Source: a virus
Taxonomy: Duplodnaviria; Heunggongvirae; Uroviricota; Caudoviricetes
Strand: one strand, 5' to 3'
IMG/VR virus record: IMGVR_UViG_2657245570_000017
Coordinates: 1 to 36,299 of that record
DNA length: 36,299 nt
In this document: piece after piece, positions 4,525 through 35,074 of the stretch
Numbering within the stretch: the first letter of the stretch is position 1
Layout: every line of letters begins with the position of its first letter
Program-made: the position numbers and the translations under genes
Notes under the pieces: generated by a model
Databases searched by the model: none
The model's input: only the letters and a program-made list of their open reading frames with translations
Told to the model about the DNA's origin: nothing

Positions 4525-4599
4525 TGCACCTCATAAAACGGGTGCCGGGTTTCGCAGCCTGCTGACTAGCAAAGCGCACAACCGCGCCAGCGGTTTTTT
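4525..4599 (+). ncRNA. Candidate small structured RNA (about 75 nt)
   Basis: Between the promoter-like motif and a hairpin plus T7 run (stem 4580-4593, T-run 4593-4599); no RBS-led ORF in this interval. Confidence 0.3.
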
Positions 4600-4779
4600 T
4601 GTGCGTACTGTATTGCCACGTCTTTTTCGCACACGAATTATGGCGGGGCGTACGGGGCCGACTTCGGTCGGGCCGGGTTCTTTGCTAGCCGGTACTGCGA
4701 ACCTCGTACGTCTCGCCACCCACAGTTTCGCAGCTCTGGATGGTGAGTTTTCAAAACTTACTAGCAAAGAGGCCACACC

Positions 4780-5455: not shown

Positions 5456-8278
5456 ATGACGACAGAGTACATCAGGGACTGGCAACAACCGCGCCACGCA
5501 GTAGGACGTGAAGGAACGGAGATCCCCGCACCTGAATCCGCGCTTTCCTCATGGCTGGATGCCTACCGGGTAGAGAACGAGCGCCGCCAGGAAATGGCTG
5601 ATGCGGCGTTCTCCGCCACACCGCTGGGCAACCTGATTAATAAAAGCCTGGACGCACAGGAAAAACAGGACAAAACCATCACACTGGCAGGAGACGCCAG
5701 AAAACAGGCACGCGGCGCGGTGGATGAAGCCATGGCCTCGCTGCGCCTGCTGCCGTCCTATCTGCGCGATCCGCTTATTCGCCACCTCTCCTTCCTGCGC
5801 AAAAAACAGGAAGCCGATCGCCGGAAAGGCAAAAAGAGCTGGCAGGCGGAACGCTATGCACGCGGAACCCTGCGCAAAATATTCGAACGTCTGGACCGCA
5901 CCGATCACCGCTGGCTGACACCGGGTTATCGCTCCCTTGCCGGACGCGAACGCCTGGACGATTTGCTTTACCTGCCGCAGCTCAACAAACACCAGATACA
6001 GACGCTGGCCACCATGACGGCGGCGATGTTCAGCAGCACCTTCGAAAAACTCTGCGATGGCTTTGGCGCGACCGATGGCGAGCTGACCATGGATGTAACG
6101 CTGAAGGCGTATCAGATGCTGGCCCGCATGGCGTTACACCTGCACGCCATGCCTCCACATTATGACGCACTGACAACAGACAAAGACCGGAGGAACGAAC
6201 CAGACACGGAGCTGCTGCCGGGCGCAATCCTTCGCCTGACCTGTGCGCAATGGTGGAAACGCAAACTGTGGCTGTTACGTTGCGAGTGGCGGGAAGAACA
6301 ACTCCGCGCCGCCTGTCTGGTTTCCAGAAAAACATCGCCCTATCTGAGCCAGGACGCGTTAAGCGAGTTTCGCGCACAGCGCGAGAAAACACGCGATTTC
6401 CTGAAAAGTTTCATGCTGGAAAATGAAGACGGGTTCACGATTGATCTCGAGACGGTGTATTACGCGGGAGTAAGTAACCCGGTTCACCGTAAGGCAGAAA
6501 TGATGGCCACCATGAAGGGACTGGAACTTCTGGCCGAAGCCCGTGGCGACAGAGCGGTGTTTCTGACTGTCACCTGCCCGTCAAAATATCACGCAACAAC
6601 GGAGAACGGTCATCCGAATCCCAAATGGAACGGGGCCACAATGCGCAACTCCAGCGATTACCTGGTTAACACGTTTTTTGCGGCGGTCCGCAAAAAACTG
6701 AACCGCGACGGTCTTCGCTGGTATGGCATCCGCACGGTGGAGCCTCACCATGACGGTACCGTACACTGGCATATGATGGTCTTTGCACATCCGGAAGAAA
6801 TCGACAGCATCGTGGCCATCACCCGCGATATTGCCATTCAGGAAGACCGCCACGAGCTGGGCAATGATATTACTCCGCGCTTTAAGGCGGAGTATGTCGA
6901 CGGCTCAAAAGGCACACCAACCAGCTATATCGCGACCTACATTGGAAAAAACCTGGACAGCCGCGCCGTGGATGGCATTGACCCGAAAACGGGCAAACCA
7001 CGCGTTGACCACGAAACCGGAAAATCAATGGCCGAGAGCGTGGAGCGCGCCATCGGCTGGGCGCGCCTTCACCGGGTCCGCCAGTTCCAGTTCTTTGGCA
7101 TCCCCTCCCGTCAGGTGTGGCGTGAACTGCGCCGCCTTGCCAGCCAGATGGCACGCAACCCGGAAGGCCCGCAACGACTGAAGGACGACGCAATGGATGC
7201 GGTACTCGCTGCCGCTGATGCCGGGTGTTTTGCCTCCTACATTGAAAAACAGGGTGGCGTACTTGTTCCACGCAAAGACTACCTGATTCGCACCGCCTAC
7301 GACCTCGCAGATGAGCTGAACGATTACGGCGAACAGAGTGTACAGATTTACGGGATCTGGTCGCCGCTCATCGGGGAGTCTTCCCGCGTGTGCACGCACC
7401 CGGATAACTGGAAGCTGGTAAGACGTAAACCGGAAGCGGAAGACAGCGCCCGCGAAAATGGTTTTGACCTTCAGGGCGGCCCTGCCGCCCCTTGGACTCG
7501 TGGCAATAACTGTCCCCGTGTACAGGAAACAGACAACAACGGGACAGAACAGCCGGAAGAACGGCCAGCACCGTGGCCGCAGCTTCCTGACGGCGTTGAC
7601 GTGAACGAATGGGTGCGCTCACTGAAACGGCACGAACGCCGGGCGCTGATGCGTTCGCTGCGTGACAAACAGGCAAAAAACAGCAGTGATGAAATGCAGA
7701 ACTGGACACAGAGCCGCAAACAGCCACAGCCTTTGCCTGATAACCACGAATTACTCGCTAAAGAATGGCGGGAGTCTGCTGAATCTCTCGGCCTGCATAT
7801 CGGTGAACAGCAGATGCAGCACCTGTTACGGGGCGGCAGTCTGTACGTTGACGGCAGCATCATTGCACCGCAGGGATTTGAAATTGTACGCAAACCGGAT
7901 ACCCGACCGGACAGCCGGATCACGCAGCTCTGGCAGCGCCTGAGCCGTAACCACGGCGTAAGCAGCACGGAGATCCGCCATAACCCGGTCGCCAGCTATC
8001 TGGAACAGCTGGGGGCATCAGACCCCGAAGCCGCCGCACGCCTGGCATCCACACTTCAGCAAGACCAGAACACCATGAAAACACCCGTTACCGTGCTTTC
8101 TGACATGCTGCGCGCCATCCGCGACGCAGAGCACGCACAGAGAATCAGTGAAACCACTGAACGCGCCCGCCGCAAAGCAGACCTGCTGCGGGGTGGCCTG
8201 ACCATTGGAAACAAAAAACAGACAGAAACGGGATTCACAAATCCCGTAAATGAGCAAAAAACGCGCCGCGATATATGA
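5456..8278 (+). CDS. A: Replication initiation endonuclease, P2 gpA-like, with long C-terminal extension
   Basis: 940 aa; HUH-type motif VHWHMMVF and paired catalytic tyrosines YIATYIGK; about 180-250 aa longer than the P2 or 186 A proteins as recalled. Confidence 0.85.
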   Translation: MTTEYIRDWQQPRHAVGREGTEIPAPESALSSWLDAYRVENERRQEMADAAFSATPLGNLINKSLDAQEKQDKTITLAGDARKQARGAVDEAMASLRLLPSYLRDPLIRHLSFLRKKQEADRRKGKKSWQAERYARGTLRKIFERLDRTDHRWLTPGYRSLAGRERLDDLLYLPQLNKHQIQTLATMTAAMFSSTFEKLCDGFGATDGELTMDVTLKAYQMLARMALHLHAMPPHYDALTTDKDRRNEPDTELLPGAILRLTCAQWWKRKLWLLRCEWREEQLRAACLVSRKTSPYLSQDALSEFRAQREKTRDFLKSFMLENEDGFTIDLETVYYAGVSNPVHRKAEMMATMKGLELLAEARGDRAVFLTVTCPSKYHATTENGHPNPKWNGATMRNSSDYLVNTFFAAVRKKLNRDGLRWYGIRTVEPHHDGTVHWHMMVFAHPEEIDSIVAITRDIAIQEDRHELGNDITPRFKAEYVDGSKGTPTSYIATYIGKNLDSRAVDGIDPKTGKPRVDHETGKSMAESVERAIGWARLHRVRQFQFFGIPSRQVWRELRRLASQMARNPEGPQRLKDDAMDAVLAAADAGCFASYIEKQGGVLVPRKDYLIRTAYDLADELNDYGEQSVQIYGIWSPLIGESSRVCTHPDNWKLVRRKPEAEDSARENGFDLQGGPAAPWTRGNNCPRVQETDNNGTEQPEERPAPWPQLPDGVDVNEWVRSLKRHERRALMRSLRDKQAKNSSDEMQNWTQSRKQPQPLPDNHELLAKEWRESAESLGLHIGEQQMQHLLRGGSLYVDGSIIAPQGFEIVRKPDTRPDSRITQLWQRLSRNHGVSSTEIRHNPVASYLEQLGASDPEAAARLASTLQQDQNTMKTPVTVLSDMLRAIRDAEHAQRISETTERARRKADLLRGGLTIGNKKQTETGFTNPVNEQKTRRDI
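8228..8247. promoter_or_regulatory. Palindrome 1, ACGGGATT-N4-AATCCCGT
   Basis: Perfect 8-bp inverted arms; lies in the 3' end of A, 127 bp upstream of the parM-like start. Confidence 0.5.
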
Positions 8279-8301
8279 AGCGCGCATAAAACAGGCAAAA
8301 A

Positions 8302-8321
8302 CGGGATTTCAGAATCCCGTA
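8302..8321. promoter_or_regulatory. Palindrome 2, ACGGGATT-N4-AATCCCGT
   Basis: Second copy 74 bp downstream of the first, 34 bp upstream of the parM-like start, overlapping a promoter-like region. Confidence 0.5.
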
Positions 8322-8354
8322 AACGATTAATTAATCAACATAAGGAAAAGCGAC

Positions 8355-9314
8355 ATGAAAATTTGTATCGATGACGGCTCCACCAACATCAAGCTGGCAT
8401 GGACTGAGAACGGCGAACGCCGCAACGCCATCAGCCCGAACAGCTTCAAGTCGGAATGGTCTGCGCCGTTCGGTGGCACGCAGCCCGCGAACTACATGCT
8501 TGATGGCGTGCGCTATGGTTTTGATCCGGTCAGCGATCGCTTTGTCCAGACGACCGACACGCAATACCAGTACAGCGATGTGAATGTCATTGCCATTCAT
8601 CACGCGCTGGTCAAATCAGGCATCACACCACAGGAAGTGGATGTGGTTGTCACCCTGCCACTGAGCGAATATTTCGACACAAACGCACAGCCGGACATGG
8701 CCAACATCAACCGCAAAAAAGCAAACGTCATGCGCCCGGTGGCGTACCAGAACGGAAAAGCATTCACTATCCGTAACGTACGGGTTATGCCTGAATCCAT
8801 TCCGGCTGGTTTTAAAGCACTGGCTGACATGAGTCCGTTTGAATCCCTGCTGATTGTGGATTTAGGCGGAACCACGCTGGATGTGGCAAAGGTTCAGGGA
8901 CAACTGGCAGGTATCAGCCAGGTGTTTTGCGATCCACACGTAGGCGTTTCCCTGATGGCCGATGCCGTACTGTCGGTGATGGCCACTAACGGTATGCGCA
9001 CCAGTCACCACATCGCCAATACCATTATCGAACATCGCCATGATGAAGCCTGGCTGCGCCAGCACATCCACAATGACGCGCATTACGCCAGCCTGATGGC
9101 GGTTATTCGTGAAAAGGAAGAAACACTGAAACAACGCGTGATCCGCGCGCTGGCGGTTTTTTCGGGTTACGGGCGGGTGATGGTTGTCGGTGGCGGGGCG
9201 GAGATTGTGGCACCCGCTATCCGCGAAGCCTGCGGAGTTAATGCGACTTTCATCGCGGACGGGGTGCCACAATTTGCTCTGGTTAATGGGCTGTACGCAA
9301 TGAACAAGGAGTAA
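8355..9314 (+). CDS. parM: Actin-like segregation ATPase, ParM/StbA family
   Basis: 319 aa; MKICIDDGSTNIKLAW, ISPNSFK, YSDVNVIAIHHAL, MPESIPAG, LIVDLGGTTLD, VVGGGAE and LVNGLY are collinear with R1 ParM as recalled; AAGGA RBS. Confidence 0.8.
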   Translation: MKICIDDGSTNIKLAWTENGERRNAISPNSFKSEWSAPFGGTQPANYMLDGVRYGFDPVSDRFVQTTDTQYQYSDVNVIAIHHALVKSGITPQEVDVVVTLPLSEYFDTNAQPDMANINRKKANVMRPVAYQNGKAFTIRNVRVMPESIPAGFKALADMSPFESLLIVDLGGTTLDVAKVQGQLAGISQVFCDPHVGVSLMADAVLSVMATNGMRTSHHIANTIIEHRHDEAWLRQHIHNDAHYASLMAVIREKEETLKQRVIRALAVFSGYGRVMVVGGGAEIVAPAIREACGVNATFIADGVPQFALVNGLYAMNKE

Positions 9315-9318
9315 ACCA

Positions 9319-9630
9319 ATGACGACACCAACCAGAAGAATAAGTTTCTATCTGAAGCCAGCTGCCGTCAAGAACGAAGGAGAAGCATGCGCCTGGCTGG
9401 ACAGTCTTACACCAGAAGCCCGCAAAAGCGGCCAACGCGTGGCTTTTCTGGCCGGGCTGGCACTTCTGAAGACGAATCCGGCAGAGGCTTACCGACTGGC
9501 CGCATGGGCTGATGATGAGATGTTACCTGTGACACAAATCAGCTCAAAAAAGTTTGAAGCACAGTCTGCACCAGTGGCTAAGATAACCAGCCAGATGGCT
9601 GGGAATATCCGGGCGTTATTTCCTGAGTAA
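9319..9630 (+). CDS. ParR/StbB-like centromere-binding adaptor (putative)
   Basis: 103 aa, 4 bp after the parM-like gene, AAGGAG RBS; N-terminal region ISFYLKP...RVAFLAGLALLK resembles ParR; sits at the parR position. Confidence 0.5.
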   Translation: MTTPTRRISFYLKPAAVKNEGEACAWLDSLTPEARKSGQRVAFLAGLALLKTNPAEAYRLAAWADDEMLPVTQISSKKFEAQSAPVAKITSQMAGNIRALFPE

Positions 9631-9758
9631 AAGCATCTGCGCGAAAAATGCTCACGTTTATAGAGACAGTATCATTCCATTTGGCACACTTACTTCAATA
9701 ATCGATCTGTTAAACAAATAGATTGTCTATTATCTATCGATTAAAACGATCAATTATC

Positions 9759-9786
9759 TTGACAGTAATGTGCCTTTTTGTAAGAT
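9759..9786 (+). promoter_or_regulatory. Candidate sigma70 promoter with GATC in the -10
   Basis: TTGACA(9759-9764)-16 nt-TAAGAT(9781-9786); GATC at 9784-9787 overlaps the -10; two more GATC upstream at 9704 and 9748. Confidence 0.5.
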
Positions 9787-9835
9787 CGTTCGCATTGTGA
9801 GCGACAAGATAATTGCGCGGCATTGTCCATGCAAA

Positions 9836-9865
9836 ACGCCCCAATAGCAGCAACTATTGGGGCGT
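9836..9865. other. Perfect 12-bp stem hairpin in leader
   Basis: ACGCCCCAATAG-CAGCAA-CTATTGGGGCGT; a short T-run follows only on the minus strand. Confidence 0.6.
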
Positions 9866-9994
9866 AAAACTCGGTCGGACTCACTTAACCTGATATGCGT
9901 GCCTTCCGAAGTAAATCAAAATGTGCGTCGTATATTTTATTGCTTACACGCACCTCTGTAAAGGCACGCATATTTTTCCTATGAGGTAAATAAA

Positions 9995-10264
9995 GTGCGG
10001 GCTAAAACAGGTATTTGCAAGAACCCTCATCGTTATAATCCAACATTTCTGTCTCTCCCTGAATATCAAGGACAAGAAGGTCGGCACAAATGCGCTGCCT
10101 GTGCTTTTGAGCTAGGCATAAAAGATGCGCTTGAAGGACGCGCTATGGCTCAGAATGATTTAGTTTTAGCTAACATTCCGTTTAGCCAGGCTGGAACTGT
10201 AAGGCACAGAGATGCCTATGAAGCATATGTTCGTGGTTGGCGATTAATACACAGCAACAATTGA
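9995..10264 (+). CDS. Orphan hypothetical protein (89 aa), moron-like
   Basis: GTG start with GAGG RBS 8 nt upstream; own promoter and terminator; AT-rich context; no family recognised. Confidence 0.55.
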   Translation: MRAKTGICKNPHRYNPTFLSLPEYQGQEGRHKCAACAFELGIKDALEGRAMAQNDLVLANIPFSQAGTVRHRDAYEAYVRGWRLIHSNN

Positions 10265-10273
10265 TACTTTTGA

Positions 10274-10297
10274 AGCGCCGATAAGGCGCTTTTTTTG
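10274..10297 (+). terminator. Rho-independent terminator
   Basis: AGCGCC-GATAA-GGCGCT followed by T6. Confidence 0.75.
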
Positions 10298-24244: not shown

Positions 24245-24712
24245 CTAAGCCGCCCTCACGATATAGTTAAATGCAATATTGCGGGGGCGGGTTTCACTAC
24301 CACCTGTGTTACCAATACTTCCTCGTGAATGAAGCGTTGGTGATGGAATCAAACTCCCTCCTGTATTTGTGGCATCAAGCCCCCTGCCTTGTGTATATGT
24401 TTTTTTGAAAATCGTGGCCAACTCCCATTCATCCTTTGTGTCATATCCATCGTTAGCTACAACAATATGGCGGTGTTTTTCCAACATCCCGGTTTGAATG
24501 CTCAATAAAGCGCGTGCTGCATCAATTCCTCGCCCATCATCCCAGCCACGAATAAATTCGCCCCGTAAATCCGGTAATTTATTGGTGGGGTAGGCTTTTG
24601 CCAGATTGGGGTACATTTCAGAAGAAAATGCTGCGCCGTTACATTTCAGCCAGCCCGTTGGTGGTGTTGCTAAGGGCCACGGAACGGGCACACCAACGGG
24701 CAGTGCAGAGCC
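24245..24712 (-). other. Silent tail-fibre C-terminal cassette (5'-truncated, promoterless)
   Basis: Encodes GLGEGSALPVGVPVPWP...collar motif...variable tip...ETRPRNIAFNYIVRAA; homologous to the 3' third of H. Confidence 0.8.
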
Positions 24713-33559: not shown

Positions 33560-33750
33560 CAGGCAGAATTGCCGGAGTAACAAAAAAGCGATAGATTACG
33601 CGCGGGTGCCTTTCGGCTGATGGTCGGAGGGAATACCCGAAGGCCAGATGTGGAAAGGCCCCGGAAAACATTTCTGTTTAACCGAGGCCCTAACATATCT
33701 ACCTTAAGCAAGTGATAGGTTAGCGCCTCTCCAACAAAGGAGCAAGCGCT

Positions 33751-33891
33751 ATGTCGCAAAAATCGCTTACGGCCATCACGTTCTGCGTGACGGTAATCCT
33801 CATCATCTGGATGCTGCACGGTTCGCTGTGTGAAATACGGATGAGCTTCTGGGGAGCGGAGTTTGCGGCGTTCTTACAGTGTAAGCAGTAA
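33751..33891 (+). CDS. Hok/Gef-family type I toxin (46 aa)
   Basis: AAGGAG RBS; hydrophobic helix ITFCVTVILIIWML followed by the family signature SLCEIR and AEFAAF (compare Hok KSLCEIR...EVAAF as recalled). Confidence 0.7.
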   Translation: MSQKSLTAITFCVTVILIIWMLHGSLCEIRMSFWGAEFAAFLQCKQ

Positions 33892-33978
33892 GGAAACCGC
33901 GACGGGGGAGCAATCCCCCGTCAATCGGTTGCTAAGGTTGGCTGAAGTGGCACCCTATCTCTCAGACATGAACAACAA

Positions 33979-34011: not shown

Positions 34012-34054
34012 GCTACCCTCACAAATGAGGGCACCATACATAAGCAATAGGCAT

Positions 34055-34100
34055 AACAGATCGATGCAATAAATCCGATCGATAAAAACGATCGATTTGT
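34055..34100. promoter_or_regulatory. Cluster of three GATC (Dam) sites upstream of com-like gene
   Basis: GATC at 34059, 34077 and 34090, each within CGATCGAT-like context. Confidence 0.5.
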
Positions 34101-34140
34101 TATCATATCGGCAGCAGTAACCACACAAGAGGTGCCGCAA

Positions 34141-34338
34141 ATGACGCAAAATGTACGATGCAAAAATTGCAACAAACTACTTGCCCGCGCCTCATTTCAC
34201 TACATTGAAATAAAATGTCCGCGCTGCAAAACACTTAACCAGATAACGAGAGCCATCGAGCACCCCACACACATGAGGAGTTATGACCGTGGGGATCGCA
34301 ATCCGGCACCAACCAGCACATACACCGGAACACACTAA
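34141..34338 (+). CDS. com: Com-like zinc-finger translational activator
   Basis: 65 aa from ATG at 34141 (AAGAGG RBS); CKNCNKLL...IEIKCPRCK matches Mu Com CKNCNKLL...IEIRCPRCK as recalled; overlaps the downstream gene start. Confidence 0.75.
   Translation: MTQNVRCKNCNKLLARASFHYIEIKCPRCKTLNQITRAIEHPTHMRSYDRGDRNPAPTSTYTGTH
34263..34294 (+). promoter_or_regulatory. Stem sequestering the methyltransferase RBS and start codon
   Basis: CCCCAC (34263-34268) pairs with GTGGGG (34289-34294), enclosing GAGGAG and ATG 34283. Confidence 0.5.
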
Positions 34339-35074
34339 GGTTTATCAGACTGACAATGCCACGCTCTGTCGTGGGAATGCACTGGAAATATTGCCGCTGA
34401 TTGAGCCAGAAAGTATTGATGCCTTAATCACTGACCCGCCTTACAGTTCGGGCGCGACACACAAGGCCGGACGCACCAACCAGGGCAGCCACGCAAAATA
34501 TCTGAACGGCGAGAACCTTCATCGCTTTGATGGGTTTGCGGGTGAAAACATGGATGCCCGTTCGTGGGCTTACTGGACACAATTATGGATGGCACAGGCA
34601 CACCGCGCAGTCAGGCCGGGCGGTTATGCCCTGGTATTTACTGACTGGCGACAACTGCCAGCTTTAACCGATGCGTTTCAGGCCAGCGGTTTTACATGGC
34701 GTGGAATCATTGCGTGGAACAAAGGAAGGGGGTCACGAACACCCCATACGGGGTATTTCCGGCATCAGTGCGAATACATCGTCTGGGGCAGTAAAGGCCA
34801 TTTAGGTAAATCGCCTTCGGGACCGTTCGACGGCTGCATGACGTTCCCGGTTATCCCATCAAAGAAAATGCACCCGACCGGAAAACCAGAAGAACTTATG
34901 GCAGAACTGGTCAGGACTGCGAATAGTGGTGGAACAGTCCTTGATCCTTTTATGGGATCGGGAACAACGGGTGTTGCAGCACTAAAAGCAGGACGCAAAT
35001 TTATTGGTATAGAAACCAGTGATCATTATTTTGATGTAGCAACACAACGGCTCAAAACGGCGATCGAACCATAA
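34283..35074 (+). CDS. DNA methyltransferase (N6-adenine/N4-cytosine, beta class)
   Basis: 263 aa; DPPY motif (ITDPPYSS) precedes the AdoMet motif DPFMGSGTTG; alternative GTG start at 34289. Confidence 0.85.
   Translation: MTVGIAIRHQPAHTPEHTKVYQTDNATLCRGNALEILPLIEPESIDALITDPPYSSGATHKAGRTNQGSHAKYLNGENLHRFDGFAGENMDARSWAYWTQLWMAQAHRAVRPGGYALVFTDWRQLPALTDAFQASGFTWRGIIAWNKGRGSRTPHTGYFRHQCEYIVWGSKGHLGKSPSGPFDGCMTFPVIPSKKMHPTGKPEELMAELVRTANSGGTVLDPFMGSGTTGVAALKAGRKFIGIETSDHYFDVATQRLKTAIEP

Follow-up and report, generated by a model that had tools for sequence, protein, structure and literature searches.

Few Dam/OxyR switches have, to our knowledge, been characterised, these being the switches of agn43, mom, gtr and opvAB. 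At the Mu mom promoter, Dam methylation at three upstream GATC sites blocks OxyR binding. The operator of agn43 (flu), carried by prophage CP4-44, consists of one bipartite OxyR site, which carries three GATCs at a 19/13 spacing, and because this site overlaps the promoter or the transcript start, OxyR acts there as a repressor. The gtr operons of P22 and Salmonella are prophage cargo, in which GATC-bearing OxyR half-sites, 32 bp apart, lie upstream of or overlap a sigma-70 promoter (PMC2909390, PMC3688519), and methylation prevents OxyR binding at agn43, mom and gtr alike (PMC2909390 and references therein). The DNA analysed here, positions 1 to 36,299 of IMG/VR record IMGVR_UViG_2657245570_000017 (hereafter the window), is a P2-like (Xuanwuvirus/P88-like) Escherichia coli prophage in which two intergenic regions resemble these operators: region 1, upstream of an orphan gene for a small putative zinc protein, and region 2, upstream of an operon that comprises a com homologue and a DNA methyltransferase gene.

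We consider it probable, at roughly two in three, that regions 1 and 2 are operators of the Dam-sensitive OxyR class represented by agn43, Mu mom and P22 gtr, with support that appears strong for the com-methylase operator and good for the orphan-gene operator. Raw statistics within the window are weak, and the case for both operators stands because of external evidence, namely an independent position weight matrix (PWM), the layout of the sites, and their conservation. The same three lines lend support to the sequence-only reading, which had proposed that both cargo modules may be under methylation-sensitive control like that of mom. Region 2 would be homologous to the operator of Mu mom, here put to use before a com-methylase operon of a P2-like prophage, and region 1 a further operator of a known class before an uncharacterised cassette, the switch mechanism itself being already known. 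Membership of the class is argued from sequence, layout and conservation; the OxyR binding, methylation dependence, phase variation and transcription starts described below are to be read as predictions.

Half-site layout and weight-matrix scores

Mu mom, agn43 and P22 gtr were aligned as a comparison set (the gtr layout following PMC2909390), and these three operators share with regions 1 and 2 a common layout of two dyads 31-32 bp apart, with GATC on the dyad edges. The agn43 dyads are ATAGAATAAAACGAT-C and, 32 bp further on, G-ATCGTTTATATCGAT-C; those of Mu mom are ATAGAAAACGACGAT-C and, at +31 bp, G-ATCGGTAATACAGAT-C; and half-sites A, B and C of P22 gtr follow one another in 32-bp steps, A and C each holding a pair of GATCs at a distance of 13 bp. 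Region 2 has ATAGGCATAACAGAT-C at 34047 and G-ATCGATAAAAACGAT-C 31 bp beyond it at 34078, while region 1 has G-ATCTGTTAAACAAAT at 9705 and, again at +31 bp, ATCGATTAAAACGAT-C at 9736. The proximal dyads of the two regions belong to a shared 19-mer, TCGATTAAAACGATCAATT (9737-9755) in region 1 and TCGATAAAAACGATCGATT (34079-34097) in region 2, identical at 17 of 19 positions, as the sequence-only reading had noted with coordinates about one base off. Its core is a 15-bp dyad, ATCGAT(T/A)AAAACGAT, which agrees with the OxyR dimer half-site ATAGnTnnnAnCTAT at eight of the ten specified positions. No third dyad was found 31-32 bp beyond either end of region 1 or region 2; gtr has three half-sites, four GATCs and two alternative OxyR positions (ON and OFF), whereas regions 1 and 2 have two half-sites each.

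A PWM was built from the seven half-sites of the validated agn43, Mu mom and gtr (A/B/C) operators, and no window sequence contributed to it. When some 36,000 positions of the 36.3-kb window were ranked on this matrix, the proximal dyad of region 2 (34078) came first at 19.9 bits and that of region 1 (9736) second at 19.7, the third-ranked position scoring 14.7. Scored as bipartite sites with a 31/32-bp spacing, region 2 reached 31.2 and region 1 reached 27.6, against 8.7 for the next unrelated site, and none of 200 shuffled windows attained the bipartite score of region 1. At the level of individual operators, the 13 bp of TAAAACGATCAAT in the proximal dyad of region 1 are identical to agn43 dyad 1 (13/13), such that agn43 TAAAACGATCAAT(A)TCT is nearly the same as region 1 TAAAACGATCAATTATCT, and the half-site A region of P22 gtr, GATCGGTAACAACGATCAATTAAC, agrees with the region 1 proximal dyad at 19 of 24 positions by an eye count.

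The two regions are dissimilar in the placing of their GATCs, which stand at 9704, 9748 and 9784 in region 1 (spacings 44 and 36) and at 34059 (I), 34077 (II) and 34090 (III) in region 2 (spacings 18 and 13). The shared 19-mer of region 1 holds a single GATC, the position equivalent to GATC-II reading TATC. The earlier statement that each region carries three GATCs therefore stands, but not that they lie upstream of a promoter-like element, as the third GATC of region 1 falls in the -10 and the region 2 operator sits on the -35; likewise, the analogy with the three GATCs of mom is literal for region 2 only, region 1 having one GATC per dyad and one in the -10.

Neither region gave an Rfam match at the gathering threshold, weak sub-threshold matches being to a terminator hairpin, and we found no methylation data at these prophage GATCs in the methylome papers searched. 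Isolated 15-mers that resemble OxyR half-sites also occur in the tail-fibre region (23681, 24263 and 24987; 10.8-14.7 bits) without a bipartite partner, and are probably chance matches; the same region has repeated segments at 24534/25054/25529.

The two operators and their promoters

In region 2 the distal dyad (34047..34061) carries GATC-I (34059-34062) on its edge, agrees with the consensus at 7 of 10 positions and ranks fifth in the window at 11.3 bits, and the proximal dyad (34078..34092) is flanked by GATC-II (34077-34080) and GATC-III (34090-34093). The predicted promoter-like element on the + strand, a TG-extended TCGATA-16-TATCAT (34079..34106), has its -35 and spacer overlapped by the proximal dyad, and its -10 begins 11 nt past GATC-III, as it does in other com loci such as L190. 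Downstream on the same strand, com (34141..34338) encodes a homologue of the zinc-ribbon translational activator (PF10122, E = 9.5e-12; phrog_13819, 'gpCom control of modification') that is 52% identical to Mu Com. The methyltransferase gene (34283..35074, + strand) overlaps com by 56 nt and encodes a 263-aa DNA methyltransferase of the beta-class N6-adenine/N4-cytosine type (PF01555, E = 3.5e-33), whose closest relatives among solved structures are those of DpnA and CcrM. Its AUG is paired in a predicted hairpin (34263-34294) with the Shine-Dalgarno sequence in the loop, the fold z-score being modest at -1.9. M.EcoGII was considered as an identity for this enzyme and ruled out by length (263 aa versus 349 aa; PMC5778455).

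The resemblance to Mu mom extends beyond the half-sites. Mu mom has the identical 18/13 GATC spacing and two dyads 31 bp apart (ATAG...GAT-C followed by G-ATCG...GAT-C), and there, as in region 2, a zinc-ribbon gene, com, runs into the beginning of a gene for DNA modification. The hairpin predicted at the methyltransferase AUG, for all its modest z-score, resembles the structure that Com opens at Mu mom. The two loci nevertheless differ in that the downstream enzyme is a PF01555 methyltransferase and not Mom, that GATC-III is 51 nt from the com ATG in region 2 compared with 78 nt in Mu (27 nt shorter), that the operator lies on the predicted -35 in region 2 but at about -59 to -104 in Mu mom, and that the carrier is a P2-like prophage here and Mu-like for mom. 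As to position, the agn43 site lies at the -10 and past +1, that of region 2 on the -35 and spacer, and that of region 1 wholly 5' of the -35; with its operator over the -35, region 2 is closer to repression by occlusion, as at agn43, than to mom. In the Hin1523, Hia5 and Nme1821 modules of Mu-like prophages, a non-specific adenine methyltransferase takes the place of mom behind a com-like gene, with a presumed anti-restriction role and tight control (PMC3299994). The present operon has the same order of com and putative adenine methyltransferase, here in a P2-like element with a putative OxyR/Dam operator, a feature not mentioned for those modules.

Conservation of the region 2 operator was assessed across 50 distinct com loci (homologues 52-100% identical), 47 of which have a high-scoring bipartite operator upstream. 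The proximal dyad is 62-65 nt from the com ATG in most of these loci and about 107 nt in the most distant group, and the 18/13 GATC spacing is retained in the diverged loci L148 and L161. Three loci (L158-L160) show a clean natural deletion of the whole operator upstream of com, from GATC-I to GATC-III, with the TATCAT -10 retained.

Region 1 comprises a conserved regulatory block of operator and promoter (9697..9790, + strand), delimited by its similarity to a diverged cassette. The distal dyad (9705..9719) has a GATC (9704-9707) on its outer edge, and the proximal dyad (9736..9750), which forms the core of the shared 19-mer, has another (9748-9751) on its promoter-side edge. The operator ends 8 bp 5' of a predicted sigma-70-like promoter (9759..9787, + strand; 10/12 in a promoter scan), which consists of TTGACA (9759-9764), a 16-nt spacer and TAAGAT (9781-9786), with the third GATC (9784-9787) overlapping the -10. 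Transcription would start near 9793, which places the operator at about -89 to -44.

The diverged cassette occupies the same slot in L076, L063 and L092 and encodes a protein about 60% identical to the orphan protein over the compared stretch; its similarity to the window begins abruptly at 9697. The alignment shows the two dyads, the two promoter elements (-35 and -10) and each of the three GATCs to be kept, and the 16-bp inter-dyad spacer and the flanks to have diverged; in L076 the distal dyad reads as a perfect palindrome, ATCTGTTAAACAGAT. Cassettes of Citrobacter, E. whittamii and Salmonella P22-like phages, like that of L076 (TAGGATC), retain the hexamers together with the GATC of the -10. 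Among 32 near-identical copies of 9687-9860 the single polymorphism, at 9727, falls in the inter-dyad spacer, and a distant BLAST search of region 1 against phages returned near-identical copies only. Homology to phages P88, Chuche and Shae breaks off precisely at the stop codon of parR, and these phages have other cargo in the slot, which indicates that region 1 is part of the orphan cassette.

We propose that a host OxyR tetramer would bind the paired ATAGnTnnnAnCTAT-like dyads only while their GATCs are unmethylated, and that bound OxyR would shield the dyad GATCs from Dam, each cargo promoter thereby being held in one of two heritable methylation states. As the proximal dyad covers the -35 and spacer of region 2, OxyR should repress the com-methylase operon, and methylation would relieve that repression. 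Com would in turn enable the methylase to be translated from a start codon that is predicted to lie in a hairpin. Expression of the orphan gene would be tied to methylation state through the upstream operator and the extra GATC in its -10, and, with this operator placed 5' of a promoter close to consensus, the sequence does not reveal whether OxyR would activate or repress.

Recurrence of the operator and rival explanations

An exact scan of IMG/VR for TCGATWAAAACGATCRAT returned 84 loci, copies of regions 1 and 2 among them. Recurrence in relatives, which the sequence-only reading had suggested as a check, is found not only at the com loci and the diverged orphan cassette described above, but also before other genes. 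In lambdoid phage contigs L093 (766-815), L065, L060 and L077 the motif lies 5' of cor superinfection-exclusion lipoprotein genes (phrog_1119), with three GATCs at an 18/13 spacing in L093 and L065, an exact match to the region 1 19-mer (19/19) in L093, and a distance of about 93 nt to cor in L060. The best dyad pair is likewise 31-32 bp apart in the cor loci and in L058 and L121; a search of complete E. coli genomes recovered no locus of the cor type. Other genes behind the motif are those of an unknown membrane-protein operon and lipoprotein genes on unrelated phage contigs. The occurrence of one motif before varied genes in unrelated phages suggests that the operator is portable and serves a host factor, as opposed to a phage-specific regulator. 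One further locus, L049, has a GATCGATAAAAACGATCGAT dyad followed by a com homologue and then a C5-cytosine methyltransferase, an arrangement which suggests that com operons exchange modification enzymes yet retain the operator.

Several observations weigh against placing both regions in the Dam/OxyR class. The raw 17/19 match and the clustering of GATCs are at chance level in 36 kb: the window contains 18 same-strand pairs that match at 17 of 19 positions, versus 2-5 in shuffles, three GATC triplets within 84 bp where 1.9 would be expected (P = 0.30), and one within 35 bp where 0.35 would be; these statistics were excluded as evidence. Plain consensus counting (22-bp or 30-33-bp spacing) gives region 2 a score of 15/20 and region 1 a score of 14/20, equal to that of Mu mom, but ten window sites score at least 14/20, and this count was rejected as too permissive in favour of the PWM from validated sites. 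The matrix is itself qualified by the half-site registers of agn43 and mom, which were picked by best fit to the consensus and not from published footprints. The distal dyad of region 1 is weak (consensus 6/10; 7.9 bits, rank 19 in the window), and each dyad of that region has one GATC only. By-eye alignment shows region 2 to be without the Mu -10 and without a site for the C activator (Mor/C family), so that mom cannot be a full template for its regulation. Lastly, the OxyR-like dyad is absent from the cassettes of relatives in Gilliamella, Yersinia, Pantoea and others (bipartite PWM below 9), in which the GATCs at about -45 and -10 are kept, and OxyR therefore cannot explain the conservation of these GATCs family-wide.

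This last point gives rise to an alternative which we judge unlikely but not negligible, in which control of the orphan gene is methylation-sensitive and independent of OxyR, the likeness of region 1 to an OxyR site being secondary. RNA polymerase would itself sense the GATCs near -45 and in the -10, as happens at IS10 pIN, or these would be read by another factor, for example SeqA on hemimethylated DNA or an Lrp-like protein. Relatives of the cassette in Gilliamella, Yersinia, Rahnella, Pantoea, Citrobacter, Enterobacter, Salmonella, Providencia and Proteus have a GATC 6 nt 5' of the -35 (as 'GATC-6 nt-TTGAAG') and a second at or next to the -10 (TAGGATC or TATAAT..GATC); within the 260 nt upstream, the family-wide promoter of L208-L216, L219, L222, L233 and L009 shows taagctGATCtttttaTTGAAG at the -35 side and GAGATCTCGA in the leader. 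Two of the three region 1 GATCs, that in the -10 included, belong to these family-wide promoter features, which may confer an OxyR-independent sensitivity to methylation. The family-wide GATCTTTT motif may bear a resemblance to the pap/Lrp GATC box. The subgroup of the window and L076, however, has the full bipartite operator, with its score of 27.6 bits unequalled among the shuffled windows, and on the sequence comparison an OxyR-type operator has been added in the E. coli P2-like subgroup only. Its conservation in the face of a drifting spacer likewise speaks against this alternative, although the two explanations are not mutually exclusive.

The resemblance between two AT-rich, GATC-bearing intergenic stretches could instead be due to chance, with region 1 having no operator function; the 17/19 pairs in shuffled windows, the unenriched GATC triplets and the ten permissive consensus sites could be cited in its favour. 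We regard this as highly improbable, as the two proximal dyads rank first and second on a matrix built independently of the window, the region 1 bipartite score was reached in none of the shuffles, the operator has been conserved in the diverged cassette although the proteins share only about 60% identity, the exact 19-mer recurs before cor, and the match to agn43 is complete over 13 positions. It seems scarcely more plausible that the motif is the site of a phage or another host regulator (LysR-type, prophage repressor, Cox or Ogr), or that region 1 is the parC centromere of the ParMR system, despite the generic nature of LysR-type boxes (T-N11-A) and the position of region 1 directly 3' of parR. 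The motif has no further copy in the window at up to three mismatches and is hence absent from the immunity region, and it recurs in Mu-like and lambdoid phages and at agn43, which have their host in common rather than a phage regulator. As for parC, region 1 is without iterons, the homology that par phages share breaks off at the stop codon of parR, and in contexts without par the cassette still accompanies the orphan gene. Better candidates are two 42-nt direct repeats (8212-8326), each with a palindrome ACGGGATT..AATCCCGT, at the end of gene A and just 5' of parM, which are likely to be the parC centromere or a ParR operator.

If the Dam/OxyR assignment of regions 1 and 2 is correct, the presence of two candidates in one prophage would suggest that the switch is common, and reusable for expressing cargo in part of a population, and a prophage methyltransferase subject to phase variation becomes conceivable. 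A broader proposition, which we find doubtful at present, is that the OxyR/Dam operator is a portable epigenetic switch that temperate enterobacterial phages set before varied cargo, and that a Dam/OxyR switch here sets a second methylome in a two-tier arrangement; were the methylase also to methylate GATC, it could lock its own operator ON. Its cases would comprise cor superinfection exclusion, com-linked methylases, the phrog_3941 zinc protein, agn43 and gtr, and clonal lysogens would then be an ON/OFF mosaic for several defence and surface traits.

The orphan gene and the prophage context

The orphan gene (9995-10264, + strand) encodes an 89-aa protein of phrog_3941 with the motif C-x3-H...C-x2-C, and is followed by a terminator (10272-10292). 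The family yielded 1321 matches at E <= 1e-3 with 45-60% identity, all lacking annotation, which span Proteobacteria, Bacteroidota, Firmicutes, Spirochaetes, Chloroflexi and other groups. A zinc site is suggested by four residues that do not vary, Cys8, His12, Cys33 and Cys36. AlphaFold gives a confident model (predicted local distance difference test, pLDDT, 86; predicted template-modelling score, pTM, 0.80), and no fold match to it was found among solved structures in the PDB. The region 1 operator may accordingly offer a regulatory handle on a very widespread, uncharacterised family of small zinc proteins.

Between promoter and start codon the orphan mRNA has a predicted structured 5' leader (9793..9994, + strand; fold z-score -3.8, from the putative start), with hairpins at 9836-9865 and, longer and followed by a U run, at 9893-9973 (inverted repeats I2 and I4). 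The opposite strand holds a probable cis-antisense RNA unit of about 100 nt (9830..9962, - strand; fold z-score -4.0), in which TTTACA-17-TAAAAT (9962..9934) resembles a promoter and a hairpin (9865-9836) that runs into UUUU would serve as terminator. The antisense -35, which reads TGTAAAG on the + strand, and the terminator hairpin with its T run are kept across the family and across genera, TGTAAAG lying about 35 nt 5' of the start codon in every phrog_3941 family member examined. The arrangement of leader and antisense RNA resembles an antisense-controlled or type I toxin-antitoxin-like module.

The prophage is carried by about 3% of complete E. coli genomes, among them O157 and O111 strains such as O157:H7 FRIK944 and O111 95JB1: of 5426 such genomes, 166 contain region 1 and 183 contain region 2, and E. 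coli GF66.2 is 100% identical to both. The window opens with the integrase gene (1-1020), followed by replication gene A (5456-8278), parM (8355-9314) and parR (9319-9630); the portal and terminase genes start beyond the orphan cassette, from 10751 onward. D and ogr lie near 32-33.5 kb. A hok/mokW-like host-killing module (about 33580-33960), with terminators on its flanks and about 84% identity to modules of Shiga toxin (Stx) phages, is situated between ogr and the com operator. In the early region, Rfam matches above the gathering threshold to isrK (4526-4600) and to C4 antisense RNA (4636-4723) mark an antisense immunity element of the P1/P4 type.

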